A stretch of DNA of 64,000 nucleotides from a phage: the sequence record PZ445451.1. The stretch is one strand, 5' to 3'. The position numbers and the translations under genes were made by a program. The notes beneath the pieces are model-generated. The model saw only the letters and a list, made by a program, of their open reading frames with translations. It did no database searches and was not told where the DNA came from. This document shows positions 47,292 through 63,348 of this stretch, piece by piece (the stretch's first letter is position 1; every line of letters starts with the position of its first letter).

Positions 47292-47301
47292 GGTTTTCTC
47301 C

Positions 47302-48368: not shown

Positions 48369-48691
48369 CTCTCCTCAAAATCCATAAGTATAAAGATATT
48401 AACTTTACCTTCTATATTATGTTCTACAACAAGATCTGCAAATTCTTTGTAGGCTTTTTCTTCTATTTGTTCAATGTGAGACGCTACATCTTTGTATATA
48501 GCGTCACCATCTACTTTAACAAGGAGGAATAGAGATCTTACTTCAATCTCTTTATTTTTACGGGGTAGAAAATCGACGGCTTCTTGTATACGCCAGCCGA
48601 GATACCCTGGAGTCCTTTGAATATCCTCCAAATGACTTTCTAAGATTTCCCTTCCTTTGTCTATTAAAGCCTGTTCTGTCGTTATTTTCAT
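48365..48691 (-). CDS. Hypothetical protein (108 aa)
   Basis: Track ORF. Confidence 0.5.
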   Translation of the reverse strand: MKITTEQALIDKGREILESHLEDIQRTPGYLGWRIQEAVDFLPRKNKEIEVRSLFLLVKVDGDAIYKDVASHIEQIEEKAYKEFADLVVEHNIEGKVNIFILMDFEES

Positions 48692-48701
48692 CCCCTTCTC
48701 C

Positions 48702-49274
48702 TTAATGTGTTAATGAAACTGCATAACTAAACACAGGTTCAGATATTACATCGGCTACAGTAATAAAAACGTCCTCGTCTTGCGTTGTTTCTACACGACA
48801 TACAGTTACACCATTTACCACGAATTCAACGCAATGTGGAATATCTTCACAAACGAAGGTAGTGTAAGTAACACCCAAAGCATCATACAAAGATTTAACA
48901 GTGTTTGCAAGTGCCGCAGTTTCTTCTTTTTCTGAGACAATGAATGCTGTAACAATAAGATTGTTTGCATAGTTTAGACTGTCCTCTATAGCCAATGATT
49001 TACAAGGTAGTAATGCAAAATATTTACCTGGTTTAATCAGACCTGCTTCCCATTGATTCAAAATTGCCTGGGATGGTTTAGTAATATAAAATAGATTTTC
49101 ACTTGGGTTATCAATATTACTTCTGGCGATACAACGTGAAGGATTATTAATATCAAATACATGATCAAAATCTACACAAACAGGTAAACTGAAAGGTGTA
49201 AATTTTTTACCTAATAATCCTATGGCTGATAATATGTTTGCTGTGCTTATCTTCCCGTTAAAAGCTAAACGCAT
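48702..49274 (-). CDS. Hypothetical protein (190 aa)
   Basis: Track ORF. Confidence 0.55.
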   Translation of the reverse strand: MRLAFNGKISTANILSAIGLLGKKFTPFSLPVCVDFDHVFDINNPSRCIARSNIDNPSENLFYITKPSQAILNQWEAGLIKPGKYFALLPCKSLAIEDSLNYANNLIVTAFIVSEKEETAALANTVKSLYDALGVTYTTFVCEDIPHCVEFVVNGVTVCRVETTQDEDVFITVADVISEPVFSYAVSLTH

Positions 49275-49285
49275 ATTTAACTCCT

Positions 49286-49489
49286 TTAACTAGCGACCGT
49301 AACTTCCGAACTTTCTTCTTTCGTACTGTCTACGATATGCCTGGTGGCAATATACGAGACTTGCCAGTTACCATCTGGTGTAGTCTCAATAAGTACCCTA
49401 TCTACTTCGAGAAAATGCAAAAATTCCACCATCGCTCGCTTCGATAGGAATTGTTTTTTAACAGTCTCCTCAAAAGATTGAACTGCCAT
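49286..49489 (-). CDS. Hypothetical protein (67 aa)
   Basis: Track ORF. Confidence 0.5.
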   Translation of the reverse strand: MAVQSFEETVKKQFLSKRAMVEFLHFLEVDRVLIETTPDGNWQVSYIATRHIVDSTKEESSEVTVAS

Positions 49490-49498
49490 GTTTCCTCC

Positions 49499-50161
49499 TT
49501 ATTTAATATTCAATTTTGCACAAAGACGTTGTACCGCTTTGGCATCGAACAAACTCCCACGAATAGTTCTCTTTCCTGATTCATTCAGATGCTTTGCAAT
49601 CGTCATATATGGCGTTTTACAAGCTCTGTATGCAACTAAAGAATCTTTTAAAGAAAGCGCAAACTCTCTTGAGCGTTTTGCTTCTTCCGTTTTCGTATAG
49701 TCTGTTCTTTTGTATTTAGGGTTTGCTGCACCAAGAAGCGTTCCCTTCGCTTTTGCTACCTTAAGGCTCTTCTTAACACGATCAGATATTGCACGAGCCT
49801 CTTCTTCTGCCAGAACTGCTAAAATATTTATTATCATATTTTCAGCGGAGGGCATAGTTGCTATTCGTACATTAATCATCTCTAACAAGGTTGCAACAGA
49901 AGCTGTGTTACGTCCAAGACGGTCAACCTTAGCAACAACAAGTGTAGCACCTGTTTCTTTGCAAAGATTAACAGCTTTTACAAGCTCTCTACGTTGCTTC
50001 CAATCGCCTTTACCCGAATAAAACTCTGCAAAGCTACCTACAATAGTATAATTTTCTTGTGAATCCAGGAAGCGTTGAATATCTGCTTCCTGTGATTCTA
50101 TACCATACTGGTTGCCTTGTTGTTTCTTCTTAGAAAGTCGATGATATAGTACAAACTTCAT
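49499..50161 (-). CDS. Small serine recombinase (resolvase/invertase family) with C-terminal HTH
   Basis: Track ORF; N-terminal YHRLSKKKQ (catalytic Ser), VAKVDRLGRN, EEEARAISDRVK, C-terminal HTH ..YMTIAKHLNESGKRTIRGSLF. Confidence 0.8.
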   Translation of the reverse strand: MKFVLYHRLSKKKQQGNQYGIESQEADIQRFLDSQENYTIVGSFAEFYSGKGDWKQRRELVKAVNLCKETGATLVVAKVDRLGRNTASVATLLEMINVRIATMPSAENMIINILAVLAEEEARAISDRVKKSLKVAKAKGTLLGAANPKYKRTDYTKTEEAKRSREFALSLKDSLVAYRACKTPYMTIAKHLNESGKRTIRGSLFDAKAVQRLCAKLNIK

Positions 50162-50218
50162 AATACCCTCCTGTTCTGTTACAGGAAGTATGCACTACCT
50201 TAATGTTAAAGTCAACAG

Positions 50219-50434
50219 TTAAGTAGTGGTAATATCATCCTCTTGAATACCAGGGTCAACTTCTGCAAAGATAGCCTCTACAGGAATTTCTTCACCTGCT
50301 ATTCTAGAAAGAAGCACTGAACCAATAGCTTTTGCGTGTTCTTCGGATTCCGCATAAACATTAGTTCCTGTGTCTTTTTTCTTAGTTTCGTTAAAATATA
50401 CCAGATAGTAATTGTATGCCATTATTCTTCCCAA
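50219..50434 (-). CDS. Hypothetical protein (71 aa)
   Basis: Track ORF. Confidence 0.5.
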   Translation of the reverse strand: MGRIMAYNYYLVYFNETKKKDTGTNVYAESEEHAKAIGSVLLSRIAGEEIPVEAIFAEVDPGIQEDDITTT

Positions 50435-50673
50435 TCGTTGTTACGAGCACTTTCAAGAACCTTGACAACTTCTGCATACTCTACAGCTAAACCAGCACAC
50501 ACTTCAGCTTGTTTTGCAATTGCTTGTTTAAAGAACATAGCGATTGCAACACTCTGTGTTGTGTGAATGTTATCTGCTTTAGTTGATACATGAAGATCAA
50601 AATCTTCTTCATCAAAGGTGAGTTCCATAGTAACAATAAATTTCTCGGTCATAAAAATGCTCCTCTTAAACAA
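50422..50673 (-). CDS. Hypothetical protein (83 aa)
   Basis: Track ORF. Confidence 0.5.
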   Translation of the reverse strand: MFKRSIFMTEKFIVTMELTFDEEDFDLHVSTKADNIHTTQSVAIAMFFKQAIAKQAEVCAGLAVEYAEVVKVLESARNNDWEE

Positions 50674-51175
50674 AATAGAAAGGTTGAGTTAAACCCAGCC
50701 TGTTTTTTGGGTCGTAGACGTACCAAGCATATGCTGTCTTATCAGTACCACCTGCAACAAAAGATGGTCGTTCAGCAAGAACAATCAAATTTGTTGGTGG
50801 ATTCTGTTTATGGAATTCCCTTCGTTTAATAGACTCTAGGAACCCAAGACGCAACAAGTATATGCAAACGTCTGCTTCTTTTAAGCTCTTTTGCAAGAAC
50901 TCAAGTGCAAGTCTGAATGGTGGATTTGTGATTATAATATCCGGCTTAGTATGCCATTCGTGGTTAAAATAATCCTTCCCTTCTTCTAACTCACAATATT
51001 CTGATCCTTCTGGAAAATGTTGATAAATTGCAGCAGCAGCGCCTTTACACGGTTCTGCAAAAATAAAACCTTCTTCTTTAAGGTTATTAAAATCTATTAC
51101 ACTAAATAATGCATTTATACATTTTTGTGGAGTAGGATAGTAATCAGTTGGTGGACGATCATACTTATTTGCCAC
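50666..51175 (-). CDS. Putative DNA amino-methyltransferase (N6-adenine or N4-cytosine)
   Basis: Track ORF; DYYPTP near N-terminus, AdoMet-like FAEPCKGAAAA, catalytic IIITNPPF (D/N-PP-F/Y) motif. Confidence 0.65.
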   Translation of the reverse strand: MANKYDRPPTDYYPTPQKCINALFSVIDFNNLKEEGFIFAEPCKGAAAAIYQHFPEGSEYCELEEGKDYFNHEWHTKPDIIITNPPFRLALEFLQKSLKEADVCIYLLRLGFLESIKRREFHKQNPPTNLIVLAERPSFVAGGTDKTAYAWYVYDPKNRLGLTQPFYFV

Positions 51176-51593
51176 TATTTAAAATCTCCTCTTTTGTGAT
51201 TTCAGGGTTTTCTTCAAAAACCATAATATCTCTTAAGAACGTTAATTCTTCCATAGATACTGGTATTGTATCTTCTTCTGTTTTTCGTTTACATAAATCG
51301 TCAAGAAAGTTTTTAACGCTTTCTGACACATCGTAAAATTTCAACAGTTGATAATCACAGGAGAAGATCCTATCTAGTTCTAACATTCTTTCTAAGATAT
51401 TTTCTGTGTTGCCGTACAACACACGAACCTCTCCGAAAGGGTTGACTAAATATTGTGAATTTCTGAACCATCCCTTTTTAGATACAGTGTAACGCTGTTC
51501 TGCTAAACTTTCAATAAAATTTTTAGCCCTTTTACAGTTTTGTTCTAAAGAGTAGTAGGCTTTTTCTACAAAGATTACAGGTACTGGTAACAT
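51165..51593 (-). CDS. Hypothetical protein (142 aa)
   Basis: Track ORF. Confidence 0.5.
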   Translation of the reverse strand: MLPVPVIFVEKAYYSLEQNCKRAKNFIESLAEQRYTVSKKGWFRNSQYLVNPFGEVRVLYGNTENILERMLELDRIFSCDYQLLKFYDVSESVKNFLDDLCKRKTEEDTIPVSMEELTFLRDIMVFEENPEITKEEILNSGK

Positions 51594-51633
51594 ATCTCCT
51601 CCTAATAACCCCCGTGAGGGGGTTTATGTTAGA

Positions 51634-52287
51634 TTAATTATCAGAGGATACTTTATCAAGTTTTTCAGAGACTGTCAATACTTTTTCTTGTGATTCTTTC
51701 ATTTCTGCTAAAATACTTTCAGCTTCATCACTATCAGGATCACCAGTCAACAGCATACTAATTAGTTGCTCCTTGCTGAAGTTCAGAATATCTTCCGCTG
51801 TTAGCTCCAGTTGTTCTTCAATCTCTTCGACAAAAGTTTCACCGCCTGAAAAAGCATCTCGTAGTTTTGCAACTTCCATCGCTTCTTCTGGGGTTGCCCC
51901 AGCGTCTAAAGCTGCTAAAGCAAAATCTGCCCCACTACCAACAGCATAGTAATCTTCAGTTAAAGGATATGCTCGCGTTGGATTATTACCCTCGTGCATA
52001 TAAATTTTACCGTCTGGGTGAACAACCAATGCCACAAACTCTTCATCTTCTTTATCAGGATCTGACTGGATCACCAAACCTGGGATTGTCTCTTGTGCTG
52101 CCTGGCACTGTAAGTTTTGTTCGAACCAAGAAAAGAAAGTCAGGATAGAAGACAGACGTCCTGCACCACCAACAAGGTAATCCCCAATTTTACGCACTTT
52201 CTTAAAATTTAAAGTGTCTACTCGATTACCTACTGTTACTTTACCGTCAGATAGAATTTTGTTATGTGTTGCAATAATTGTTGTCAT
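51634..52287 (-). CDS. HslV-like / proteasome beta-type Ntn-hydrolase peptidase with acidic C-terminal extension
   Basis: Track ORF; MTTIIATHNKILSDGKVTVGNRV..KKVRKIGDYLVGGAG..AVGSGADFALAALDAG parallels E. coli HslV (MTTIVSVRR..GDGQATLGNTV..KKVRRL..AGFAG..AIGSGGPYA), N-terminal Thr after Met. Confidence 0.7.
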   Translation of the reverse strand: MTTIIATHNKILSDGKVTVGNRVDTLNFKKVRKIGDYLVGGAGRLSSILTFFSWFEQNLQCQAAQETIPGLVIQSDPDKEDEEFVALVVHPDGKIYMHEGNNPTRAYPLTEDYYAVGSGADFALAALDAGATPEEAMEVAKLRDAFSGGETFVEEIEEQLELTAEDILNFSKEQLISMLLTGDPDSDEAESILAEMKESQEKVLTVSEKLDKVSSDN

Positions 52288-52778
52288 TGTACTTCCTCCT
52301 GTAGTGTTTTAAGGACTGCTTTACCACCGCTTACATACTTACGGAGGTAATCAATAGCTCTTAGTGTTTCTTTATCCACAAGAATTTTATTAGTTCTTGT
52401 CAATGGATGATTCAGTAAGTCACTGCAATTTCTTACTAACATAGATTTCTTGTGAAAGATACTGCTAAGAAAAAGAAGTTTAGAATCTTCTTCATCAATC
52501 AGGAGTAATTCTGAATTAGACCCAGCTACATTTATTATACACTCAAACAAGCCTTCTTGACTATCAGATAATTCCTGGTAATATTTAGTTAGCCAATCCT
52601 CTCCTTTTAACCAACTAAAAAACATCTGAACTTTTTGCAAAGTTGTCATGTTCTCTAAACGAAGAGATATTTCTTTTTCAATCTTGTCAATATAAATCTG
52701 TCTAAACTCATTCGGCTTAACTAAGCCAGCTTGATAGCATTCATCAATACCATTGCGATCAATCTCAATTAGCGTCAT
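52284..52778 (-). CDS. Hypothetical protein (164 aa)
   Basis: Track ORF. Confidence 0.5.
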   Translation of the reverse strand: MTLIEIDRNGIDECYQAGLVKPNEFRQIYIDKIEKEISLRLENMTTLQKVQMFFSWLKGEDWLTKYYQELSDSQEGLFECIINVAGSNSELLLIDEEDSKLLFLSSIFHKKSMLVRNCSDLLNHPLTRTNKILVDKETLRAIDYLRKYVSGGKAVLKTLQEEVQ

Positions 52779-52814
52779 TTAACCTCCATAATAGGCATCC
52801 TTGCCTTGTAATTA

Positions 52815-53567
52815 TTAATATACTTCCGTGATGAACTGAGACAAACGGGAACGTTGGTTATCAGCAGTTGTCATTTCAACATAACCAATAAAATCTACAA
52901 TAGCTTCCCTTTCTCCTTCTTCGTTAATAGGAACAACACGATCTAACAAATCACCTAACCCGTTAGCTCTTCGTTTAATTGCATATGTTTGATTAACATC
53001 GCCCATAATGACAATACGTGTATTAAGACCTGCTCGCTCAAGGAGAAGTTTTACTGTGTTTGGTGACATAAGTTGAACTTCATCAATAAGAATAATGCTG
53101 TTATCCCACGTAGCACCTAGTGCATAGTTCGGAATATTAAGTTCAATTTTGCCACTTGCAATATCGTTTTCCAATTTATTTGCAGTCATAAACTGTTGGA
53201 AAATTCTTTTAGTTGACTCGTAGTGTGCTGCTAGTTTATCAGTCTTATCTCCAGATAAGAAACCGATTTGGTCATCACCTACTTCTGTCGGGTTTTTAAG
53301 GAAAATCAACTTTCTGAAGTCACCAGCTTTAAGCATTTGCAATGCTTTCCATAGTGCTGTTGTCGTTTTTCCTGTTCCTGCTGGGGCATTAACAATGGTT
53401 AAATCATTCCAAACCATGCTTCTTACAATAGCTTCTTGATTCCCAACAGGGGTAAATTCATCAAGACGGTAATCATCATTTCCTACTGCTTTAGCCGCAT
53501 AACGACTGGCACGTTTGTCATCATTGGCTGCTGATTGACGACGAGCCTTTGCGGTTTTATTTCCCAT
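52815..53567 (-). CDS. phoH: PhoH-like ATPase
   Basis: Track ORF; Walker A NAPAGTGKTTTA, Walker B/PhoH motif IILIDEVQ..RIVIMGDVNQT. Confidence 0.8.
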   Translation of the reverse strand: MGNKTAKARRQSAANDDKRASRYAAKAVGNDDYRLDEFTPVGNQEAIVRSMVWNDLTIVNAPAGTGKTTTALWKALQMLKAGDFRKLIFLKNPTEVGDDQIGFLSGDKTDKLAAHYESTKRIFQQFMTANKLENDIASGKIELNIPNYALGATWDNSIILIDEVQLMSPNTVKLLLERAGLNTRIVIMGDVNQTYAIKRRANGLGDLLDRVVPINEEGEREAIVDFIGYVEMTTADNQRSRLSQFITEVY

Positions 53568-53583
53568 GTTTGCACTCCTTATA

Positions 53584-53606
53584 AAAGGGGCTTTCGCCCC
53601 TTTGTT
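53584..53606 (-). terminator. GC hairpin plus T-run (AGGGGCGAAAGCCCCT-TTTAT), bidirectional terminator-like
   Basis: Seen directly between lysozyme and phoH. Confidence 0.5.
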
Positions 53607-54106
53607 TAGTTATAAGCGTCTAATGTTCCAGTTTTAAGCACCTGAATTACACGCTCTGCGCGATTAGGCGTTTGGCGATACCATTTACTTTTACGTAAAT
53701 TTATAGAGGCTTGAGTATAATATGAATTACTCACTAAAGTCAAGCTATTTTTGAAAGATTCTGCACCTTTCAATCCCATTTGAAATACCATATTAATAAT
53801 AGCCATTTTACGATTAGAACTTACTTTATCGTAAATAGGAGATAATATGGTGCTTGAATGGATTTGTTGTATCGCTTTCTTTACGTCACTCTCAAAGATT
53901 CTTCTAGCTTCCGCTTCAGTAATAACTCCATTGGTTTTTCTACCTACTAAGTTATCAAGAATGCGTATAGCTTCTGCTTTATCTTTGAGTTTTGTCAGAA
54001 GGTGTCCAATACCAACTGTCCAATACCCTTCGGTATCAGGATATACAGTTAGCTTTAGTCCTTCATCAAAACGTAACATATCAAACACATCAACTACTTT
54101 AGCCAT
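53606..54106 (-). CDS. e: T4-type lysozyme (endolysin, glycoside hydrolase family 24)
   Basis: Track ORF; [66 protein letters not shown] is near co-linear with T4 gpe ([32 protein letters not shown]...NQTPNRAKRVI..GTWDAY). Confidence 0.9.
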   Translation of the reverse strand: [166 protein letters not shown]

Positions 54107-54118
54107 GTTTTCCTTATA

Positions 54119-54262
54119 TTAGTCGCCATCCCCATGATCTAGCTCTTGAAACAGTAGGTGTTCAGGAGACATTTCACGTTTAGGCTTCGTCTTTTTAGTT
54201 TGGGACTTAAGCTCTGTTGCCAAAGCACGAGAAAAGATCTTACGTTTCTGTTTACCTTTCAT
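54119..54262 (-). CDS. Small basic protein (47 aa)
   Basis: Manual ORF MKGKQKRKIFSRALATELKSQTKKTKPKREMSP..; GGAG SD. Confidence 0.35.
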   Translation of the reverse strand: MKGKQKRKIFSRALATELKSQTKKTKPKREMSPEHLLFQELDHGDGD

Positions 54263-54266
54263 ATTG

Positions 54267-54533
54267 TTACTCCGCAATCTGAGCCATGAATTCACGTAGT
54301 TCAGAAAAACCTCCTACGTGGGTTAGCTGTTCACCATCTTCCACAAAAATCTGAGGAAATGTGCGTGGTAGAACACCTGTTTTCTCTAAAACCAGATTCT
54401 GAATCTGATCTAAAGAATAGTCTTCATCTAAGGTAAGGTATTTAAAATCCTGTTCACGCTGTTCCAGTAGAATCTTAGCGTTAGTGCAGAAAGGACAATT
54501 TGGTTTACCGTAGATAATAAAATTCATTTTCAC
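54267..54533 (-). CDS. nrdC: NrdC-like thioredoxin/glutaredoxin
   Basis: Track ORF; 88 aa, IIYGKPNCPFCTNAKILL..FPQIFVEDGEQLTHVGGFSELREF parallels T4 NrdC (VYGYD..CVYCDNAKRLL..QVFAPDGSHIGGFDQLREY). Confidence 0.8.
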   Translation of the reverse strand: MKMNFIIYGKPNCPFCTNAKILLEQREQDFKYLTLDEDYSLDQIQNLVLEKTGVLPRTFPQIFVEDGEQLTHVGGFSELREFMAQIAE

Positions 54534-55360
54534 TCCTTGTTTAAAAGTATAGTTAAAGTTCTTACAATACCGCTATCAACACTTCGCGGATTTAAAGTAG
54601 GATCTGTTTTTAAATAAGATGTTGCTGGTCTGACTGCTTTGGAATTATAGGTTGAAGCAGATACAGGATTAACTGTAACAGACAAATCTATAACAAGAAA
54701 TATCTTTCGTGCAAAATCATACCAAGAAATATAATCTGCACCTGCATAGTGTACAATTTTACTATTTACACCATCTTTTACAAGTTTAAAAATTGTTTCT
54801 GCAAGATCAGGTGCATAAGTAGGACATGATAAATGATCACATACTACATTAAATTCTTTTTGACCACCGTTGTAGCGTTCCAACATAGTTTTCAAAAAGT
54901 TATGTCCAAATTCACTATAAACAGAAGCTGTTCTGATAATAAGTGCTGTAGGACAAACTGCTTGTACTAAAGTTTCACCTAATTGTTTACTGTAACCGTA
55001 GGTGTTCAAGGGGTTTGTTTTACTCTCTTCTGTGCCAGCAACATGTCCATCAAAAACATAGTCTGTTGAAATATGTACAAACTGTATCAGTAAATCATTA
55101 CATGCTTTGGCAATGTTTGTTGCACCGTATGCATTAACATTTATACAGGTGTTAACATCTTCTTCAGCTTTATCTACTGCCGTGTAAGCCGCACAATTCA
55201 CAACAACATCAGGCACGTGCTGTACAAGACTATTCATAACATCTTTAAAGTTGGTAATGTCTATATCACTTGCTTCAATCAAAATAACATCTTCGGGCGC
55301 AACTTTTGCCAAAGACTGTCCTAATTGACCTTTTGAACCAAAGACTAAAAATTTTGTCAA
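54530..55360 (-). CDS. rmlD: dTDP-4-dehydrorhamnose reductase
   Basis: Track ORF; N-terminal LVFGSKGQLGQSL Rossmann motif, size and operon position after rmlC. Confidence 0.8.
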   Translation of the reverse strand: MTKFLVFGSKGQLGQSLAKVAPEDVILIEASDIDITNFKDVMNSLVQHVPDVVVNCAAYTAVDKAEEDVNTCINVNAYGATNIAKACNDLLIQFVHISTDYVFDGHVAGTEESKTNPLNTYGYSKQLGETLVQAVCPTALIIRTASVYSEFGHNFLKTMLERYNGGQKEFNVVCDHLSCPTYAPDLAETIFKLVKDGVNSKIVHYAGADYISWYDFARKIFLVIDLSVTVNPVSASTYNSKAVRPATSYLKTDPTLNPRSVDSGIVRTLTILLNKE

Positions 55361-55911
55361 AATATGATCTCCTTTAGTGTTTTGGCTTCCTGATCTTTTT
55401 GTGACAAGATAGGTTTAAAATTAATATCATTAAAGATTAAATCAAAACCCCAATCTATATTGATATCTGGATCATTCCACGCAAGACTACACTCTGAAGT
55501 CGGATCGTAATATTCCGTACATTTGTATTCAAAATCAGCAATATCACTAATCACAACAAAACCATGAGCGAAACCAGGAGGAATCCAAAATTGTGTTTTA
55601 TTCTTTTCAGATAAGAGAACACCTACCCATTCTCCAAATGTTGGACTACCAACTCTAATATCTACAGCAACATCATAAACTTCACCACGAACACAACGTA
55701 CTAACTTCCCTTGTGGGTTTTTCTTTTGAAAATGAAGCCCACGTAGAACTCCTCGGATAGAACGTGAATGGTTATCTTGGACAAAGTTTTGTTTACCTAT
55801 GTATTGATCATATAAAGCCTGATTAAAACTTTCTAAGAAAAAGCCACGTTCATCTCCGTAAACGTCAGGTTGAATGATCAACAAATCTTCGATTTTTGTT
55901 GCTTGAATCAT
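55357..55911 (-). CDS. rmlC: dTDP-4-dehydrorhamnose 3,5-epimerase
   Basis: Track ORF; ..DERGFFLESF..RGLHFQ..QGKLVRCVRGEVYDVAVDIR..PPGFAHGF typical RmlC cupin motifs. Confidence 0.85.
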   Translation of the reverse strand: MIQATKIEDLLIIQPDVYGDERGFFLESFNQALYDQYIGKQNFVQDNHSRSIRGVLRGLHFQKKNPQGKLVRCVRGEVYDVAVDIRVGSPTFGEWVGVLLSEKNKTQFWIPPGFAHGFVVISDIADFEYKCTEYYDPTSECSLAWNDPDINIDWGFDLIFNDINFKPILSQKDQEAKTLKEIIF

Positions 55912-55923
55912 TTAATTCCCCCT

Positions 55924-56793
55924 TTATTTTAATTTAAGTAAATACTTACCGTAGTCTGTTTTACTTAAAACCTCTCCAGAACTTTTTACAGAGTCTAAAG
56001 TAATCCATTCATTTTTAAAAGCAATCTCTTCCAGGCATGCAACCTTCATACCTTGTTGCTTCTCTATTGCATGAACAAATTGAGATGCTTCCATAAGACT
56101 TTCATGTGTTCCTGTATCCAGCCAAGTGAAACCTCTTCCTAGTTTACAGACACGTAAAGTCTTTTCTTTCCAGTACATCTCATTTATATCCGTAATCTCT
56201 AACTCCCCTCTAGCAGAAGGTTTAACGCTCTTAGCTTTCTGTATAACAGAATTATCGTAAAAGTACAAGCCTGTGATTGCGTAGTTGCTTTTTGGTGTTT
56301 TTGGTTTTTCTTCAATACTCACCACTGTACCTTCAGAATCAAACTCAACAACACCAAATCTTTCAGGATCATTTACGTGATACCCAAAAATATTAGCTCC
56401 ACCATTCTTTTCAATATGTTCTTTAGCAGAATCTAAAATGCTACCAAAACTCTGACCAAAGAACAAATTATCACCTAGAACAAGTGCTACAGAATCTTCA
56501 CCAATAAAGTTCTCACCAATAATAAATGCTTCTGCTAAACCTTTTGGGCTGTTCTGTACTGCATACTGTAGGGAAATACCAAAAGAAGAACCATCACCTA
56601 AAAGATTTACAAAATTAATTTGATCTTCTGGTGTTGTAATTATTAGTATTTCCCTAATTCCAGAAAGCATTAGGACAGAGAGTGGATAATAAATCATAGG
56701 CTTATCGTAAATTGGTAATAGTTGTTTACTAACCCCTTTAGTAACTGGGTAAAGTCTTGTTCCGCTACCACCTGCTAAGATAATACCTTTCAT
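55924..56793 (-). CDS. rmlA: Glucose-1-phosphate thymidylyltransferase
   Basis: Track ORF; [36 protein letters not shown]. Confidence 0.9.
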
Positions 56794-56801
56794 ACTCCTC
56801 C

Positions 56802-57791
56802 TTAAACTTTATTTTCCCACCACTCTTTGTTATCTACATACCAATCAATGGTTGAATAAAGTTTTTCTTCAAATGTGCCTTTAGCTTTCCACCCTAATTC
56901 CTTTTCAATCTTATAAGGATTCACTTCATATCTTAGATCATGTCCAGGTCTATCTGTAACCATCTCAATTAGGCTACAAGCATCTGTTTCAGATGGATAC
57001 ACCGCATCCATATAATCACAAATCATATAGATTACATCAATATTAGTTCTAGGGTTTCTGCTCCCAATATTATATGTTTCTCCAGATTTGCCTTTAGTTA
57101 CTACTAGGTGTAATGCTTCTGCGTGATCGTCAACGTATAACCAGTCTCTTACTTGAAGACCATTGCCATAAACAGGGATTGGTTTATTCATCAAGATATT
57201 TGTTATCGTTTTAGGTATCAGTTTTTCTGGATGATGATATGCTCCAAAATTATTTGAACAATTTGTTATAACTGTCGGAATACCATAAGTACGATGCCAC
57301 GCTCTTACCAAATGATCGCTTGCTGCCTTAGATGCAGCATATGGACTACTTGGCTTATAAGGATTCTGTTCTGTAAACGGATAATCCCCTTCTTCCATAT
57401 CACCATACACTTCATCTGTTGAAATATGATGAAACATTTTAAGATTTGATTTATCTCCCATTAAACGAACAGCTTCTAGAAGATTAAATGTTCCAACAAT
57501 ATTTGAATTTATAAAAACACTCGGTGATGCTATTGAATTATCTACGTGACTTTCTGCTGCAAGATGCATTATATAATCTGGGTTAACATCTGCCACAATC
57601 TTAGCAGTTAACTGAGCATTTGTCAAGTCAACACGACAAAACTTTACATTAGGTGTTTCTGATAAATTTCTAGGGTCTGAAGCGTAACCCCATTTATCTA
57701 TAACGTAAATATCATTCTTAGTATTTTTAGCCAGGAAACGAACTACTGCACTTCCAATAAAGCCTAAACCACCTGTTACTAAGTATTTCAT
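56802..57791 (-). CDS. rmlB: dTDP-glucose 4,6-dehydratase
   Basis: Track ORF; [31 protein letters not shown] (YxxxK), HISTDEVYG. Confidence 0.9.
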
Positions 57792-58078
57792 TTAGTCTCC
57801 TTCCAATTATTCCCTTCAGTAAAAATAATACCTTCATAAAACAACCATCTGGAACCTTTTTCAACAGGAACAGGAATCTCTTCTTCAGTAAAGTTATAAA
57901 CCTCTCTAGCATCTTCTAAAAGTGATGCAAATGTTTTTGGACTTACTGTTACGCGAGGAGCATTGATCAGTTGATCTAGCATCATTCTACTATCCTCCTT
58001 ACCAAACGTGTTGAGAAATAATAGTTTCCGTTTCAATGTTATATTTTTCAAGAAGTTGTGCGTAGGCTTCTTTTGCAT
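57788..58078 (-). CDS. Hypothetical protein (96 aa)
   Basis: Track ORF. Confidence 0.5.
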   Translation of the reverse strand: MQKKPTHNFLKNITLKRKLLFLNTFGKEDSRMMLDQLINAPRVTVSPKTFASLLEDAREVYNFTEEEIPVPVEKGSRWLFYEGIIFTEGNNWKETK

Positions 58079-58325
58079 TCTTATTTAGTTGCTCAAGATC
58101 TACAGCTATACTTCCTTCGCCACCTTCTAAATAAATGCCATATATGCAATAAGATTCATCAGCATCATAGAAAGGAGAGATACGGCTTAAATCAAGACCT
58201 TCTTGTAAGAACCAATTAAAATCTCCATCAAATTCTTCTTCAATTCTAGGATCTTCTCCTACAGCCTCTTCCCATTTATTAAAAGGTGCACCCTGTAACA
58301 TACGCCATTCAGTGGCAACTCCCAT
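57999..58325 (-). CDS. Hypothetical protein (108 aa)
   Basis: Track ORF; GAGGAGG SD 5 nt upstream of ATG 58325. Confidence 0.5.
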   Translation of the reverse strand: MGVATEWRMLQGAPFNKWEEAVGEDPRIEEEFDGDFNWFLQEGLDLSRISPFYDADESYCIYGIYLEGGEGSIAVDLEQLNKNAKEAYAQLLEKYNIETETIISQHVW

Positions 58326-58461
58326 TATCTTCCTCCTCTTCTTTTTCTTCCGTGTGAACGAAGCCTAAACCGTTACAATTCCAACACGGAATAAATTGTT
58401 CCATACTAACAATAAAATTCCCAGTACCACCGCAGATAGGACAAATACTTACATCATCCAT
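58309..58461 (-). CDS. Mini zinc-finger protein with DnaJ-type CxxCxGxG repeats (50 aa)
   Basis: Manual ORF MDDVSICPICGGTGNFIVSMEQFIPCWNCNGLGFVHTEEKEEEEDNGSCH; GAGGAG SD; overlaps next gene by ~17 nt in another frame. Confidence 0.45.
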   Translation of the reverse strand: MDDVSICPICGGTGNFIVSMEQFIPCWNCNGLGFVHTEEKEEEEDNGSCH

Positions 58462-58463
58462 TA

Positions 58464-58646
58464 TTAAAGCTCCTCAATCTTTTCTAACATCTGTTTTAAC
58501 TCATTCTCTGTTAACAGAATTTCTGTGATACCATCATAAGTTTCTACCATCAGAGTAAAACATTTTTCTCCATCTGAACACACAAAAGCACCACCTTCAT
58601 CTTCTGTTAAGTCAGAATTAATATCCACATCAACAAAATCAATCAT
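58464..58646 (-). CDS. Hypothetical acidic protein (60 aa)
   Basis: Track ORF; start moved to MIDFVDVD (AAGGAG SD). Confidence 0.45.
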   Translation of the reverse strand: MIDFVDVDINSDLTEDEGGAFVCSDGEKCFTLMVETYDGITEILLTENELKQMLEKIEEL

Positions 58647-58857
58647 CTTTTTCTCCTTTGATAATTTCAAACTTGGCTACACCATTAACTATAATGTGAC
58701 CGCAAGACATAACTCCTAGCCAATGATCACCATTCTTTTTTAAACGTTTACCGTAAACATCACAGAAACCATTCTGTAATTCGGAAGCCTCATAAGAGGC
58801 TCCCTTTTCGAAAACGTCTTTGAAGTCAGAAATTAATCCAACACAAAGTAGTTTCAT
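58639..58857 (-). CDS. Hypothetical protein (72 aa)
   Basis: Track ORF immediately downstream of nrdB. Confidence 0.5.
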   Translation of the reverse strand: MKLLCVGLISDFKDVFEKGASYEASELQNGFCDVYGKRLKKNGDHWLGVMSCGHIIVNGVAKFEIIKGEKDD

Positions 58858-59942
58858 TAGAAGTCTAACTCCTCGTCATCACTTACATCTTTATTTGCTG
58901 AATTCAGTTTGTAAGCTGTAATTTGGATCTCCTGTGCTGCTGCTTGAATTTGATCTGGATTTAACCAAACATCCATCCAAGGCAGTGGACTTTTCTTCGG
59001 TGCACGGAATTTGTGTTTCATTTTCAGTCTGCGATAGATAGGCGCGGCATTGAAGTAAACCCAAAGTTTGAACAACTCTGCGTTACCACCAACGATAACC
59101 CTTCCTTCACTAAACAGATAGTCACACCAATCTTCCTCTTGTCCAACTACCGTATCAAGAATTTCTGTCAGAACGTCGATATTATCTTCGTATACTTTTC
59201 TCCAGACAGGATCTTTCAGCAGTGCATCAATAATAGCATAATCCATTTTAACGTGCAATAGTTCATCCAACATAATTTTTTGAATAAGTTTAGCTGCACC
59301 TACAAACAGTTGCTGCTCTGCTAAGGCAAATGTTGCAGCAAAAGATGATATGAATTGAATGCCTTCCAGACCGATAAGTGCAATCATTCCTTTCAGAATC
59401 AGTAGACGAAGGTTATCATCCTTCTCAATCAGACCTAGAGCATATTTATGTCCTGCCTCTGCCAGATCACTCATTATCTCTTCAACTATACCCATCCTCT
59501 GGAAGATTCTTTCGTTCTCCATAATCTGATCGATAACTTCATTTGGATTAGGGATACACTGACGAATAATTTCAGAATATGTCAAAGCGTGTAAAACTTC
59601 CATTTCTGATTGCTTCATCATCATTGCACATGCTTCGTTGTTGCTTAAAAATGGTGCAAACAAAGTGATGATTGATTTAGCAAGTGAATCATTTTCCCAC
59701 TGGAAAGATAGGTTTTTGATCATAACATCATAGTTGCTTTTAGAACAAGCTACGAAATCTTTTCGTGTCTGATCTAAGTTTACTTCGTTTTCATCCCAAT
59801 CTTGCTGTTTTTGTAGTTTGTACAGGCGATGCATTTCTGGGTATGTTACGTTAATAGAATCAAAAATACCTAACTGTTCGCCCAAAAATACAGGGTAGAA
59901 ACCTTCTTTGTAAGTGTCGTTGTATAAATTAATTGCTGCCAT
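58857..59942 (-). CDS. nrdB: Ribonucleoside-diphosphate reductase small subunit (class Ia NrdB)
   Basis: Track ORF; 361 aa, ferritin-like di-iron ligand helices (..EVLHALTYSEII.., ..LEGIQFISSFAATFAL..), acidic C-terminal tail DDEELDF; continuous ORF with no intron. Confidence 0.9.
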   Translation of the reverse strand: MAAINLYNDTYKEGFYPVFLGEQLGIFDSINVTYPEMHRLYKLQKQQDWDENEVNLDQTRKDFVACSKSNYDVMIKNLSFQWENDSLAKSIITLFAPFLSNNEACAMMMKQSEMEVLHALTYSEIIRQCIPNPNEVIDQIMENERIFQRMGIVEEIMSDLAEAGHKYALGLIEKDDNLRLLILKGMIALIGLEGIQFISSFAATFALAEQQLFVGAAKLIQKIMLDELLHVKMDYAIIDALLKDPVWRKVYEDNIDVLTEILDTVVGQEEDWCDYLFSEGRVIVGGNAELFKLWVYFNAAPIYRRLKMKHKFRAPKKSPLPWMDVWLNPDQIQAAAQEIQITAYKLNSANKDVSDDEELDF

Positions 59943-60264
59943 TTAAATCCTCCACAATATCACACATTGCTTTTATTGTATCAATGTGTTCTCTCTCCAT
60001 ACCATTCTCTATGTAAGCCTTCTCTAATGCGTTCCATACACTCTTTGTGAGTAGTACAGTAACCTCTCCCTCATATCTTGCCCTGGTTAAAGCATACCAG
60101 GTAGCTTCGGGATCATTGGAAGCCCATATTTCAACACTGGAAAATTGAAAACCTGCAATATGATGACAACACCAATCGAATGTAAAATCTTTACTATCTA
60201 CCAGTGTATAATTGCCCCAACGCCTTTGTGGTGTTGCCCCAGGTAATACAACTAATGTAGGCAT
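59929..60264 (-). CDS. Hypothetical protein (111 aa)
   Basis: Track ORF; start moved to MPTLVVLPG (AAGGAGG SD) so that the GC hairpin after nrdA is not coding. Confidence 0.5.
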   Translation of the reverse strand: MPTLVVLPGATPQRRWGNYTLVDSKDFTFDWCCHHIAGFQFSSVEIWASNDPEATWYALTRARYEGEVTVLLTKSVWNALEKAYIENGMEREHIDTIKAMCDIVEDLNGSN

Positions 60265-60305
60265 ATTCCTCCTTAAGAAATGGGGGACAAAGCCCCCTAG
60301 CTTCA

Positions 60306-62567
60306 TTACATCTTACAAGACTCACAACCGGATTCTTCATCCTCTTGAGCGAGTGAGGTTGCTGATTTTGTTCGACTATTTAGATAGTACAAAGATTTAC
60401 CACCAAGTTTTGCAAACTGAAGGATATATTGCATTTCTGATTTAATGGATAAACGACCACCTTCCATCTTAGAATAGTCAATCCACTTGTCACATGATGC
60501 ACCTTGATCTAAGAATTTAGTCAACAGTCCATATGCTTCAGCCATATCTTTATCTGGCGTATCCCAAGCCGATTGGTAAATATCTTTTAGTTTATCGTAA
60601 TCTGGCACAATAAACAAGACATTACCTTTTTGGCTTTGTTTATAAACTATAGTATCACGTACAGGATACACAGAGTTAGTCGTATTACTTACAAGACTAC
60701 TGGACTCATTCGGAGCAATAGCTGCTAATACACTATTTCGGATACCACCTTGTGCAATTATATCTTGTCGTAAACCTTCCCAATCCATTTTAAGTTTAAA
60801 ATTGCCAATATCGTCTACAGCTTTAGCGTAGGTATCAATAGGCAACCATCCTTCAGGCCATTTGGTTTTATGCATCCATTCTGCATTACCTTTCTCTTTT
60901 GCCAAACGAAGAGAAGCTCTTGCTAACCAGTAATAATGTATTTCTGCTAATTCGTGAATTAGTTTTTTGCCGTAAGGATCTGAATAAGTAACAAAATTAC
61001 TTGCCAGATAATGTGCAAGGTTTGTAATACCTACACCGATAGACCTACGTGCTTTAGCAGTGATTTCGTTATGTTTAAACGGATACTGCATTGTTTCAAT
61101 CACATTATCAATAGTTAGAACGGTATAATATGCAACATCTTCATATTCTTCTGGTGTAACACGACCAGCTACAATAGAAGACAGGAAGCATAATGCCAAT
61201 TCTTGGTCTTCTGTATTCTCACCTGTGAAAAGATCAGTCATATTGTGAAATGCTTTCGTAGGTAAGAAAATTTCTTGGCACAAGTTTGACTGGTAAATAA
61301 CATCCTTAAACGGAGTATGCTTATTAACATTATCCGCAAAGAACATATAAATACGTCCTGTTTCTGCTCTTTGTGTAATAATTTCTGCCAGAAGATCTCG
61401 TGCTTTTACAAACTTCTTCTTAATTCGTTTGCGACTAACTTTTTCATATACTTCTTCAAACTCTTCCTCGCTTTTATAAAGCGCCTCATAGAGTTCTGGT
61501 GCTTCGTCATAACTGACTAGCATCCAATCTTTACCTTTTGCTGCACGGCGCAGGAAAGCATTGTTTACTACAATAGAGTAATCAAGTTTATCTACTCGTT
61601 TTTCACTAACAGTAGTTGGATTTTTCAAACGTACCAGATCTTCAAAATCAGGTTCCAATATTGTAAACGTTACTGTTGCACTTCCACCACGGCTTGCTTG
61701 TTTTGATGCTCCAACACTTGTTTCCATCCATTTCAGATATGGTAAAAGACCACCGTGAACTATACGGTTGTTCTTAACACCTTGTCCTGTAGCACGGGTT
61801 TGGAGGTTAACACCAATACCTGCATTATTCAATGTATATTCATGAGCAAGATAGTTAGCAATTGCTAAAGATTCTGCTGTATCATCTGCTCTAAACAGAC
61901 AACAAGAAGCACTACCTTTAATCTTAGTACGCAAAGTTGTTAAATAAGGTGATGGTAAATTAATCTTAAGATCACTTACGTAGGTATATAGACGTTTAAT
62001 GTCTTCTACTCTGCGATCTTTTGGTTGAATTTCCATTACCTTCATTGCTACACCAATGAATAAAAACTGTGGTGATTCAAAAACCACATCATTGATCGCA
62101 TCTTTCACAAGATACTTATCAACCATCTGGCGCAGTACGGAATAACCATAAGTTAGGTTTTTATCATGATTGATAATTTTACCAATCTCAATAATTTCTT
62201 CTTCTGTATAATCCATTTTCCCCCAATAGCCTTTACTTACAGACATATTGTAGAAATCCAGGAGGGAGGGGATATTGTGATATCCCCCATGAGCCTGTTT
62301 ATAGATCATACCAAGAAGTAACCGACCTGCCATATCACTATATGCCTGATCTTTCTTATCAATACATGCTGCTATCATAGCTTTATGTAAATCACGAGTA
62401 GGCACACCGTCGTAACAACGTTTAACAGCTTCGAGTTCAATTTCAGACCAATTTAATTTACCAGCAGCAAACTCTGACCATTTACGAAGTTTTTCTGGAT
62501 TAAATTCTTCTTTCTTGCCGTTTGTTTTTGTTACATAACGGATAGATTTGCTTAGATACTGAGTCAC
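60306..62567 (-). CDS. nrdA: Ribonucleoside-diphosphate reductase large subunit (class Ia NrdA)
   Basis: Track ORF; 753 aa, N-terminal ATP-cone-like segment, C-terminal Cys pair ..SGCESCKM, gene order nrdA-nrdB. Confidence 0.9.
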   Translation of the reverse strand: MTQYLSKSIRYVTKTNGKKEEFNPEKLRKWSEFAAGKLNWSEIELEAVKRCYDGVPTRDLHKAMIAACIDKKDQAYSDMAGRLLLGMIYKQAHGGYHNIPSLLDFYNMSVSKGYWGKMDYTEEEIIEIGKIINHDKNLTYGYSVLRQMVDKYLVKDAINDVVFESPQFLFIGVAMKVMEIQPKDRRVEDIKRLYTYVSDLKINLPSPYLTTLRTKIKGSASCCLFRADDTAESLAIANYLAHEYTLNNAGIGVNLQTRATGQGVKNNRIVHGGLLPYLKWMETSVGASKQASRGGSATVTFTILEPDFEDLVRLKNPTTVSEKRVDKLDYSIVVNNAFLRRAAKGKDWMLVSYDEAPELYEALYKSEEEFEEVYEKVSRKRIKKKFVKARDLLAEIITQRAETGRIYMFFADNVNKHTPFKDVIYQSNLCQEIFLPTKAFHNMTDLFTGENTEDQELALCFLSSIVAGRVTPEEYEDVAYYTVLTIDNVIETMQYPFKHNEITAKARRSIGVGITNLAHYLASNFVTYSDPYGKKLIHELAEIHYYWLARASLRLAKEKGNAEWMHKTKWPEGWLPIDTYAKAVDDIGNFKLKMDWEGLRQDIIAQGGIRNSVLAAIAPNESSSLVSNTTNSVYPVRDTIVYKQSQKGNVLFIVPDYDKLKDIYQSAWDTPDKDMAEAYGLLTKFLDQGASCDKWIDYSKMEGGRLSIKSEMQYILQFAKLGGKSLYYLNSRTKSATSLAQEDEESGCESCKM

Positions 62568-62578
62568 TTCCTCTCCTA

Positions 62579-62839
62579 TTAATTGTGCATGTTTAGAACA
62601 TCTACATCATAACCGCCACGCATCTCATTATATAAGCCATTTGCGTATAGAAAACCTTCAAAATGATCTATACCTTCAAAACCTTTTGCCTTTGCTTTGC
62701 GGTCTGCTTCTTGTCTTTTTGGGGATAATCTTTTAGATGTATCAAGGATAACTGTTACATTGCAACCTAATGTTTCATCAAAATAGACTTCAATTTCACA
62801 GCCTTCATATTTATTACTTTCTGTCATTTGGCCTCTCAA
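62579..62839 (-). CDS. Hypothetical protein (86 aa)
   Basis: Track ORF. Confidence 0.5.
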   Translation of the reverse strand: MRGQMTESNKYEGCEIEVYFDETLGCNVTVILDTSKRLSPKRQEADRKAKAKGFEGIDHFEGFLYANGLYNEMRGGYDVDVLNMHN

Positions 62840-63250
62840 TTAGAATTCAGAATCATCATCTCGTGATGGATCATGTTCATTTCCGAAGTCTTCCATTTTG
62901 ATATGAGAGCTACCCCAACCTGTAAAATCTTCTTCTCCAAAGTGCAAAATATCTACACCTTGATAGATTCGCTTATATTTATAGTCTTGTCGAACTGGGA
63001 AAGTATACAATGTAGTATTTGCAAACACCACACGTCGATTGTTGTTACTACGAATATTAACACCACGTTCTACTGTATAATGTCCATCGGTAGACATACC
63101 AAGCATTACTAATGCTGCTCGCAATGTAGTGTTATGATACTCGTGAGGAATTTTTCCTCCGTGTTTTTTAGCCATTTCTTTCCAGATCGGTGTAGCCTTA
63201 ATGGTAGACATACTTACGGTCGCCCAAACGGTTGTATTAATTAGTGACAT
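62840..63250 (-). CDS. Hypothetical protein (136 aa)
   Basis: Track ORF. Confidence 0.5.
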   Translation of the reverse strand: MSLINTTVWATVSMSTIKATPIWKEMAKKHGGKIPHEYHNTTLRAALVMLGMSTDGHYTVERGVNIRSNNNRRVVFANTTLYTFPVRQDYKYKRIYQGVDILHFGEEDFTGWGSSHIKMEDFGNEHDPSRDDDSEF

Positions 63251-63348
63251 AAATTCTCCTTCTCTCTTTTTAAGGAGAGCTACGCTCTCCTAACGTTAGC
63301 CTATACTACACGAATCTCAATTAAAAGTCAACTATAATTTTAAGTTGA

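Follow-up and report, generated by a model that had tools for sequence, protein, structure and literature searches.

A dTDP-L-rhamnose pathway among the nucleotide-metabolism genes of Escherichia phage PaulScherrer, and a phage-encoded glycosyltransferase cassette that may use its product

What use does a strictly lytic coliphage make of a complete pathway for the activated sugar dTDP-L-rhamnose (deoxythymidine diphosphate L-rhamnose), encoded in the midst of its genes for nucleotide metabolism? The question is raised by the genes rmlB, rmlA, rmlC and rmlD, which lie at positions 54530-57791 of a 64,000-nucleotide stretch of phage DNA (sequence record PZ445451.1) that is called, as a whole, the window in what follows. 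A megablast search with window positions 54000-58500 returns a 100% match to Escherichia phage PaulScherrer (MZ501100.1, 150,425 bp), which is phage Bas60 of the BASEL collection, a phi92-like member of the genus Justusliebigvirus in the subfamily Stephanstirmvirinae; a position in the window equals the position in MZ501100.1 minus 64,675. We infer from the genome and its relatives both a link between the rml genes and phage-encoded glycosyltransferases and the nature of the acceptor: the pathway would feed a cassette of four predicted glycosyltransferases, and the acceptor is probably not DNA, a virion protein being the best single candidate. Taken jointly, these propositions are given a probability that falls just short of even.

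The locus itself is already known. The GenBank record MZ501100.1 annotates the rml genes as bas60_0213 to bas60_0210, and the locus is a constant, published feature of the whole subfamily, whose annotation goes back to phi92 and phAPEC8 (2012) and whose discussion in print began in 2020. Olsen et al. (2020) described the pathway, called its location among the genes of DNA metabolism “peculiar”, and proposed that hydroxymethylated nucleotides become rhamnosylated; no claim of novelty can be made here for either the observation or the DNA hypothesis, because both were printed in that paper. Maffei (2021; PMC8594841) found phages Bas60-62 to be “exceptionally susceptible” to restriction-modification “despite a putative dTDP glycosylation machinery”, and a paper of 2024 (PMC10844046) restated “rhamnose modification” as an assumption and likewise remarked on the sensitivity to restriction. 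Our search of the literature found no experimental test of the role of the rml pathway in these phages, no report of rhamnosylated phage DNA and no nucleoside mass spectrometry of Bas60 virion DNA, and in the literature on these phages it found no mention of the variant, described below, in which a clade of Klebsiella phages has rmlC and rmlD alone. What is new in the present work is this rmlCD-only clade, the finding of no detectable base-hydroxylating enzymes, the four-gene glycosyltransferase cassette, the relatives of this cassette in mycobacteriophages and in a Cellulophaga phage, and its occurrence as a portable module of GT-A and GT-B glycosyltransferases near head genes.

That the four genes form a genuine, selected dTDP-L-rhamnose pathway is held with high confidence. 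All are encoded on the minus strand: rmlB (bas60_0213; dTDP-D-glucose 4,6-dehydratase, 329 residues) at 56802-57791, rmlA (bas60_0212; glucose-1-phosphate thymidylyltransferase, 289 residues) at 55924-56793, rmlC (bas60_0211; dTDP-4-dehydrorhamnose 3,5-epimerase, 184 residues) at 55357-55911, and rmlD (bas60_0210; dTDP-4-dehydrorhamnose reductase, 276 residues) at 54530-55360. Each protein scores above the cut-off of its NCBIfam equivalog model, with 443.3 bits for RmlB (TIGR01181, cut-off 365.1), 473.7 bits for RmlA (TIGR01207, cut-off 360.65), 259.8 bits for RmlC (TIGR01221, cut-off 155.75) and, by a modest margin, 253.8 bits for RmlD (TIGR01214, cut-off 224.05), and the Pfam assignments of all four agree with these. 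The statement in a preliminary description of this stretch that all four enzymes are present, intact and co-oriented is therefore correct, and its coordinates are exact; the catalytic residues are kept as well. The best solved structures for the first three enzymes come from Salmonella. RmlB (1g1a, 394 bits) conserves the GxxGxxG motif, T133-D134-E135 and Y167xxxK171 in the numbering of 1g1a, the YxxxK being held in the sequence PYAASK; RmlA (1iim, 419 bits) keeps the nucleotide-binding loop GGSGTRL; and in RmlC (1dzr, 219 bits) the motifs RGLHFQ, QGKLVRC and FEYKCT align with the catalytic residues His63, Lys73 and Tyr133 of 1dzr. For RmlD the best structures are those from Clostridium (1vl0) and B. 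anthracis (3sc6, 154 bits), with the Salmonella enzyme 1kbz lower (124 bits), and the protein conserves a threonine in ISTDYVF and the YxxxK motif in YGYSK. The exact 6-deoxy-L-hexose produced depends on the stereochemistry of RmlD; as judged from sequence it would be L-rhamnose, in preference to a product such as dTDP-6-deoxy-L-talose, and the alignment of the phage protein to characterised RmlDs is distant (124-154 bits).

Comparison with relatives indicates that the genes are under strong purifying selection. Measured against phi92 and the phage outra, the ratio of nonsynonymous to synonymous substitution (dN/dS) is 0-0.09 over RmlB, RmlA and RmlC (0-0.02 for RmlB and 0.06-0.09 for RmlA), and the RmlC protein is 100% identical to that of phi92 despite a synonymous divergence (dS) of 0.046. 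The Rml proteins as a group are 99.3-100% identical to those of phi92 and 55-71% identical to those of ESCO5 (genus Phapecoctavirus), where the synteny is the same. Their G+C content, 34.5-35%, is phage-like; that of the window is 37%, and that of E. coli is about 50%. A tblastn search with RmlC finds matches in 170 of 50,697 phage records, and those at 60% identity or more are, among the matches listed, 130-156 kb genomes of Stephanstirmvirinae. The other records are scattered over Synechococcus phages, Sphingomonas phage PAU, an Acinetobacter jumbo phage and phages from gut metagenomes. The possession of the pathway had been called unusual for a phage, which holds for phages at large but needs the qualification that about 132 of the 170 records, namely those at 60% identity or more, come from a single subfamily.

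Some records with the rml locus are deposited as Campylobacter jejuni phages (“Campylobacter phage” A150, A145, C3, A110a and B15; MG065639, MG065645, MG065656, MG065689 and MG065650), and four of them are 98.4% identical to the PaulScherrer locus, while B15 appears only as an RmlA match, at 71.2%. These records may represent mislabelling or contaminating coliphages.

Within the subfamily, one clade lacks the first half of the pathway at this site. In Klebsiella phage KP13-26 (OP617743.1, locus 4483-5891) the syntenic position holds only rmlC and rmlD, without rmlB and rmlA, in the order nrdB, two small open reading frames (ORFs), rfbC, rmlD, grx, lysozyme, phoH, and the same junction is found in Klebsiella phages FKP3, KP2025 and phi1_175008. 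The counts of records point the same way, since RmlA is found in 139 phage records, of which at most 2 can be from Klebsiella phages, compared with 8 Klebsiella-phage records among those with RmlC; the Escherichia records number 106 for RmlC and 88 for RmlA, the absence of rmlBA at the locus having been verified for the Klebsiella-phage clade only. Phages of this clade would depend on dTDP-4-keto-6-deoxyglucose from the host. In enterobacteria, RffH and RffG make dTDP-4-keto-6-deoxy-D-glucose for the enterobacterial common antigen, and these two enzymes are the expected source. Because the clade keeps just the two committed, product-forming steps, it is the end product, and not the manipulation of a pool, that appears to be under selection.

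This bears directly on the proposal, also made in the preliminary description, that the pathway serves to divert dTTP. In its general form this explanation holds that dTTP, glucose-1-phosphate or the 4-keto-6-deoxyglucose intermediate is drained, so that the host is starved of common antigen or O-antigen, and that the rhamnose is never transferred to anything. The location of the genes in a nucleotide-metabolism block would suit it, as would the fact that the enzymes of the rmlCD-only clade must draw on the host pool of dTDP-4-keto-6-deoxyglucose. The retention of rmlC and rmlD alone nevertheless makes diversion of dTTP unlikely, and the phage encodes NrdAB, NrdDG, thymidine kinase and ThyX, all of which raise the supply that it would be wasting. 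RmlA and RmlB, for their part, would add flux to the intermediate and not drain it. Bacterial RmlA is feedback-inhibited by dTDP-rhamnose, so that a sink without a consumer would be self-limiting, and diversion also leaves unexplained the strict co-occurrence of the rml genes with the glycosyltransferase cassette. The explanation is accordingly considered very improbable.

If the end product is what matters, then a consumer is needed, and a candidate lies outside the window. The earlier remark that no glycosyltransferase is visible in the window stands at the level of Pfam for the larger window proteins without firm annotation, but the search of the rest of the genome that had been suggested along with it yields four consecutive predicted glycosyltransferase genes, bas60_0051 to bas60_0048, on the minus strand at 47580-50756 of MZ501100.1, which is about 14-17 kb before the start of the window. 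The cassette is directly upstream of an 89-residue ORF and of the primase/helicase and DNA polymerase genes. It consists of two small GT-A-type proteins, bas60_0050 and bas60_0051, both assigned to glycosyltransferase families of the PHROGs database, and two paralogous GT-B proteins of the GT4 type, bas60_0048 and bas60_0049 (phrog_7162, with a weak match to Glyco_trans_1_2). FxFDDD and YGxED motifs are invariant in the bas60_0050 family, and the AlphaFold model of a homologue 78% identical to bas60_0050 has a GT-A fold (pLDDT 88.6) that distantly resembles the structures of STIV A197, WrtF, chondroitin synthases, Listeria RmlT and TarP. The model of a homologue 99% identical to bas60_0048 is a GT4-like GT-B (pLDDT 94); ranked by E-value, it matches GlgM, a mannosyltransferase, BshA and MshA best, with PglA next, and the top TM-scores belong to GtfC, in a list that also contains the protein-glycan transferases Gtf3 and SdgB. 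The DNA glucosyltransferase of T4 is absent from the Foldseek top 50 of both models. Sequence searches of solved structures with bas60_0050, bas60_0051 and the profile A2 gave nothing useful, and those with the GT-B profile A4 gave weak, generic GT4 matches only. At 60% identity or more, bas60_0051 is found in 132 records, bas60_0050 in 127 and RmlC in 132, with the same make-up of organisms. A GT-A paralogue in Klebsiella phage phi1_175008 has an uninformative context.

Two further observations concern the surroundings of the cassette and its bacterial relatives. A set of Ter-like genes adjoins the cassette (MZ501100.1 ~52762-62103), with TerD and a vWA-TerF-like protein and, further on, a macrodomain protein, a ComF-like phosphoribosyltransferase (PRTase) and a HAD protein; TelA and TerC profiles also match somewhere in the genome. 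The set resembles the Ter-associated “nucleoside-like metabolite” modules that have been predicted in bacteria. The only named bacterial homologue of the GT-B (P0062, 411 residues) is found in Burkholderia dolosa (JAIMDN010000082.1, 3025-8440), where its gene is downstream of a gene for an intimin/invasin-like surface protein and an unknown 571-residue protein, an arrangement that hints at adhesin glycosylation.

Relatives of the cassette in other phages point towards a virion protein as the acceptor. The profile of the bas60_0050 family aligns with mycobacteriophage Taj gp107 at an hhalign probability of 99.1% (E 6.7e-19, 187 columns, with FLFDDDCYP aligned), and a tblastn search with the family finds 341 Mycobacterium phage records. 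Taj gp107 occupies the position of gp108 in the right-end glycosyltransferase cassette of Che8 (cluster F), and phages of the Che8 type glycosylate their capsid proteins, as cited in PMC11256854. The domain of bas60_0051 recurs as the C-terminal domain of gp39 of Cellulophaga phage phi18:2, whose gene has portal/minor capsid genes on one side and prohead protease/major capsid genes on the other and adjoins a gene of the Methyltransf_24 family; Che8 gp108 bears a domain of this same family. The idea that bas60_0051 corresponds to the C-terminal half of Taj gp107 was rejected, as the two do not match and it is the C-terminal domain of the Cellulophaga protein that does.

The wider distribution of the cassette is consistent with this picture. 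When IMG/VR was scanned with the GT-A alignment, 25 loci were returned. The GT-A/GT-B pair travels as a unit, often together with a bas60_0051-like gene, and in two related contigs (L030 and L006) an RmlB-like NDP-sugar dehydratase gene is found inside the cassette. In six divergent contigs (L035, L038, L039, L040, L041 and L042) the GT-A gene is followed, 1-5 kb downstream, by terminase, portal or capsid genes; the GT-B accompanies it in four of the six, and the Pfam families of the terminase, portal and capsid proteins differ among them. This recurring neighbourhood fits the glycosylation of a head protein. Among the PaulScherrer virion proteins checked, only the tail sheath (L002:10170-11576) and the portal (L002:2858-4426) have C-termini that are rich in serine and threonine or of low complexity: that of the sheath is Ser/Asn-rich (…NRTANSQNSNSSTVSS) and that of the portal is Ser/Thr/Ala-rich. 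Both tails are possible glycan acceptors, to judge by their composition. In Che8 itself, Ser/Thr-rich C-terminal extensions reportedly act as the acceptors, a finding attributed to Freeman and colleagues in 2023. Glycosylation of virion proteins had been listed in the preliminary description as one purpose among several; it emerges here as the one that fits best, on support that is indirect.

A number of points weigh against the conclusion that the rml pathway supplies a virion-glycosylating cassette. Some 70 kb of genome separates the rml cluster from the glycosyltransferase cluster, and their co-occurrence, being confined to one monophyletic subfamily, is phylogenetically non-independent and is therefore weak evidence on its own. 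The donor used by a glycosyltransferase cannot be read from its sequence, and UDP-sugars (uridine diphosphate sugars) could be the donors here. Direct homology of the bas60_0050 family to the Che8 enzymes was considered and rejected: no significant match links the family to Che8 gp108, gp109 or gp110, and within cluster F the match is confined to an alternative allele, Taj gp107, for whose phage virion glycosylation would be an assumption. The position of the cassette before the terminase in other viral contigs is ambiguous, because DNA methyltransferases in small phages also sit there. The major capsid, decoration and tail-tube proteins of PaulScherrer have no Ser/Thr-rich C-terminal tail. 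Finally, the PaulScherrer cassette lies within the replication module, a location that would fit a function directed at DNA as well.

This last point leads to the explanation under which the phage glycosyltransferases place rhamnose on a hydroxylated base of the phage DNA, as those of the T-even phages do with glucose. Besides the situation of the rml genes among those of nucleotide metabolism and of the cassette beside the primase/helicase and DNA polymerase genes, it can call on a C5-cytosine methyltransferase encoded by the phage (PF00145, E 4e-44), on weak Pfam TAGT matches in 12 of 18 members of the bas60_0050 family, and on the proposal of Olsen et al. (2020), which was assumed again in PMC10844046. 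A variant, in which an enzyme of unknown class would make a modification restricted to a sequence motif, set for example by the Dcm-like C5-methyltransferase, might also be entertained. The enzymes that such a modification would require are nevertheless not in evidence. ThyA-type enzymes make 5-hydroxymethylcytosine (5hmC), 5-hydroxymethyluracil and, in RB69, 5-hydroxy-dCMP, but a Pfam scan of 76 genome proteins, comprising nearly all of those of about 100 residues or more without a firm annotation, found no TET/JBP protein, no 2-oxoglutarate-dependent oxygenase and no ThyA-type hydroxymethylase or 5-hydroxylase. Searches by tblastn with T6 gp42, gp56 (dCTPase), alpha-GT and TAGT found no match in the genome, nor in 29 further loci, 27 of which bear the cassette.

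The lead to TAGT, the TET-associated glycosyltransferase family, deserves separate mention, since kinship of bas60_0050 with this family would, together with the Dcm-like methyltransferase, have suggested motif-specific glycosylation of 5hmC. The match of bas60_0050 scores 23.3 bits, under the gathering score of 27.5, and no member of the family has a better E-value; the 60 positions that it aligns, out of 205 in the profile, take in only the generic nucleotide-binding and DxD stretch, and an hhalign comparison of the family with the genuine TAGT of T6 gives a probability of 1%. With no TET/JBP protein found either, the lead was rejected. Rhamnosylation of DNA is thus unlikely because no base-hydroxylating enzyme is detected, because the kinship with TAGT was rejected and because the phages are, as published (PMC8594841), exceptionally sensitive to restriction; the lack of any report of rhamnosylated phage DNA in the literature searched may be added to these. 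The suggestion of a rhamnose-type hypermodification in the preliminary description, which had pointed to the methyltransferases and thymidylate genes nearby, is therefore not supported, the GT-A showing no kinship with the DNA glucosyltransferase of T6, and the DNA explanation is judged improbable.

A different acceptor would be the envelope of the host, whose lipopolysaccharide (LPS), O-antigen, common antigen, NGR glycan or capsule could be rhamnosylated so as to block superinfection or to keep progeny from sticking to debris. The phages of this group bind surface glycans (NGR, O-antigens and the LPS core) by way of many tail fibres, and several fold matches lie in this direction: the GT4-type GT-B is the commonest class in the synthesis of LPS and polysaccharides, with PglA, PimA and TarM among its matches, and the matches of the GT-A include WrtF, TarP and the Listeria rhamnosyltransferase RmlT. 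The Burkholderia homologue beside the gene for an invasin-like surface protein may be counted on the same side. Phage serotype conversion is, however, known as a property of temperate phages, whereas PaulScherrer has a strictly lytic life cycle, and the turnover of surface glycans is slow relative to a single infection cycle; the Pfam scan found no Gtr-type membrane protein, flippase, polymerase or initiating phosphoglycosyltransferase. Envelope remodelling is for these reasons judged unlikely.

The same cassette could instead act on a host protein, a non-structural phage protein, a small molecule or a lipid, in the service of takeover or counter-defence, as when EarP rhamnosylates an arginine of elongation factor P. 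Four glycosyltransferases with no assignable acceptor leave room for this, the best TM-scores of the GT-B include protein-acting enzymes (GtfC, Gtf3 and SdgB), and the genome is rich in enzymes of takeover and counter-defence, with SIR2, macrodomain, NADAR and PRTase proteins and the Ter-like genes adjoining the cassette. Against this, the cassette enzymes show no match to EarP or to any characterised family of protein rhamnosyltransferases, four glycosyltransferases suggest an oligosaccharide and not a single regulatory sugar, and this kind of acceptor is without precedent in coliphages, so that the explanation is regarded as rather improbable.

The enzymes of NAD and ADP-ribose metabolism just mentioned form an observation of their own. 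SIR2 is encoded at 42325-43137 of the window, a NADAR/YbiA-like protein at 17339-17890 of the window and the macrodomain protein at 59888-60622 of MZ501100.1, and nicotinamide phosphoribosyltransferase and phosphoribosyl pyrophosphate synthetase are also encoded. The set suggests a theme of counter-defence or NAD salvage that stands apart from the rhamnose genes.

The favoured explanation, in which the cassette is supplied by a functional, long-resident rml operon of the phage itself, may be set out as a sequence of steps. RmlA would couple glucose-1-phosphate to dTTP, RmlB would dehydrate the resulting compound to dTDP-4-keto-6-deoxy-D-glucose, RmlC would epimerise this at C3 and C5, and RmlD would then reduce C4. 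Activated rhamnose would in this way be available in the infected cell whatever the serotype of the host, which would suit a phage of very broad host range. The donor would most likely be consumed by the bas60_0051-0048 cassette, and the leading candidate for the acceptor would be a virion protein, as in mycobacteriophage Che8 and the giant viruses, and not DNA. A bolder form of the proposal is that the Stephanstirmvirinae would be the first phages of Gram-negative hosts known to cover their virions in a glycan that contains rhamnose, by means of a portable GT-A/GT-B cassette, which is met again beside head-morphogenesis genes in many unrelated viral contigs, and a donor made by the phage, either with the full rmlBACD set in the E. 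coli phages or with rmlCD and the host's common-antigen precursor in the Klebsiella clade; this is advanced tentatively, with an expectation well below even.

The question that remains is why a broad-host-range subfamily of coliphages, including candidates for therapy, retains a nucleotide-sugar pathway and four glycosyltransferases under strong selection. The new leads, taken together, make the purpose of the pathway directly testable, with the rmlCD-only clade as a clean point of entry for genetics. Decoration of virions by the product, if it occurs, would have consequences for the immunogenicity, stability and pharmacokinetics of the phages in therapy, as with glycosylated mycobacteriophages, and self-sufficient viral glycosylation would extend from giant viruses and actinophages to the phages of enterobacteria. 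If DNA or the host envelope is modified instead, a new mechanism of counter-defence or exclusion would be implied.

The immediate neighbourhood of the rml genes agrees with the preliminary description, which had placed them between nrdB/nrdA and a redoxin and lysozyme, with the addition that five small ORFs intervene after nrdB. The co-directional block runs in the order nrdA (60306-62567), nrdB (58857-59942, minus strand; class I ribonucleotide reductase small subunit, PF00268, E 1.5e-33), the five small ORFs, rmlBACD, glutaredoxin and, on the downstream flank, the endolysin (53606-54106). The last of the small ORFs, bas60_0214 (57788-57985, minus strand; phrog_27883, with no Pfam or NCBIfam match), overlaps the start of rmlB by 4 nucleotides (nt) at its stop. 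Between neighbouring rml genes there are gaps of 8 nt and 12 nt or a 4-nt overlap, and rmlD overlaps by 4 nt each the stop of rmlC and the start of the glutaredoxin ORF as it stands in the ORF list (bas60_0209, 54267-54527, minus strand; PF00462, E 9.4e-12), which is the next gene downstream. The close spacing suggests that the rml genes are transcribed with the nucleotide-metabolism block. A consensus scan for promoters and terminators over 47000-64000 predicted no minus-strand terminator between nrdB and the endolysin, but it cannot define the transcription unit, because its counts equal those expected from shuffled sequence. The synteny of nrdB, small ORFs, rml genes, grx, lysozyme and phoH is kept across genera, and the position of the glutaredoxin gene is common to phi92, ESCO5 and KP13-26.

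Two features close to this block were noted in passing. A perfect GC-rich palindrome, AAAGGGGC-TTTC-GCCCCTTT, forms a hairpin at window positions 53584-53603, within the 38 nt that separate the endolysin gene from that of PhoH, and is possibly a bidirectional terminator or a processing site within the long minus-strand block. The thymidylate synthase of the phage is a divergent, ThyX-like protein of 323 residues, encoded on the minus strand from 63349 to 64000 in the window and running past its end (L001:28024-28995); it matches Pfam Thy1 with 36.9 bits, has no phmmer match in the PDB, bears the motif THRLFSRNAASSR (THRxxSxxxxSSR) and carries a long C-terminal extension.

It is instructive, finally, to compare the PaulScherrer genes with known systems. 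The rfbBDAC operons of Salmonella and E. coli contain the same four families with the same catalytic residues, and phage RmlA, RmlB and RmlC match Salmonella structures best. The phage gene order is B-A-C-D, as opposed to the enterobacterial B-D-A-C, the phage RmlD is nearer to RmlD structures of the Firmicutes type, and the phage genes have a G+C content of 35%; unlike the bacterial operons, which belong to polysaccharide loci, the phage operon is flanked by ribonucleotide reductase genes on one side and by those for glutaredoxin and endolysin on the other. Throughout phi92, phAPEC8/ESCO5 and the remaining Stephanstirmvirinae the genes are orthologous and the synteny is identical, PaulScherrer being one more member of the group.

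Among phages that alter the host surface, the temperate phages with GtrABC serotype conversion differ in that PaulScherrer is a virulent myovirus, whose annotation shows one small site-specific recombinase and no lysogeny module, and in that GtrA, Glycos_transf_2 and the membrane glycosyltransferase families were not found among the 76 scanned proteins. The T-even phages and RB69 are also large lytic myoviruses with glycosyltransferases, and in RB69 a sugar-nucleotide pathway too, in an early or nucleotide-metabolism region; unlike them, PaulScherrer has no detected homologue of the ThyA-type hydroxymethylase or hydroxylase, dCTPase, alpha-GT or TAGT, and its DNA is sensitive to restriction. 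The giant viruses (chloroviruses and mimiviruses) resemble it in that they encode nucleotide-sugar synthesis together with glycosyltransferases and do so independently of the host, but they employ a UDP-rhamnose route in eukaryotic hosts, whereas PaulScherrer, a 150-kb tailed phage in which virion glycosylation is putative, uses the bacterial dTDP route. The Che8 gp108-110 cassette is similar in consisting of phage-encoded soluble glycosyltransferases, and the bas60_0050 family is homologous to Taj gp107, which stands in the gp108 position; PaulScherrer differs from Che8 in that its enzymes bear no significant similarity to those of Che8, shows no obvious Ser/Thr-rich C-terminal acceptor on its capsid or tube proteins, has no sugar O-methyltransferase, infects a Gram-negative host, and carries with it a complete pathway for the donor sugar.

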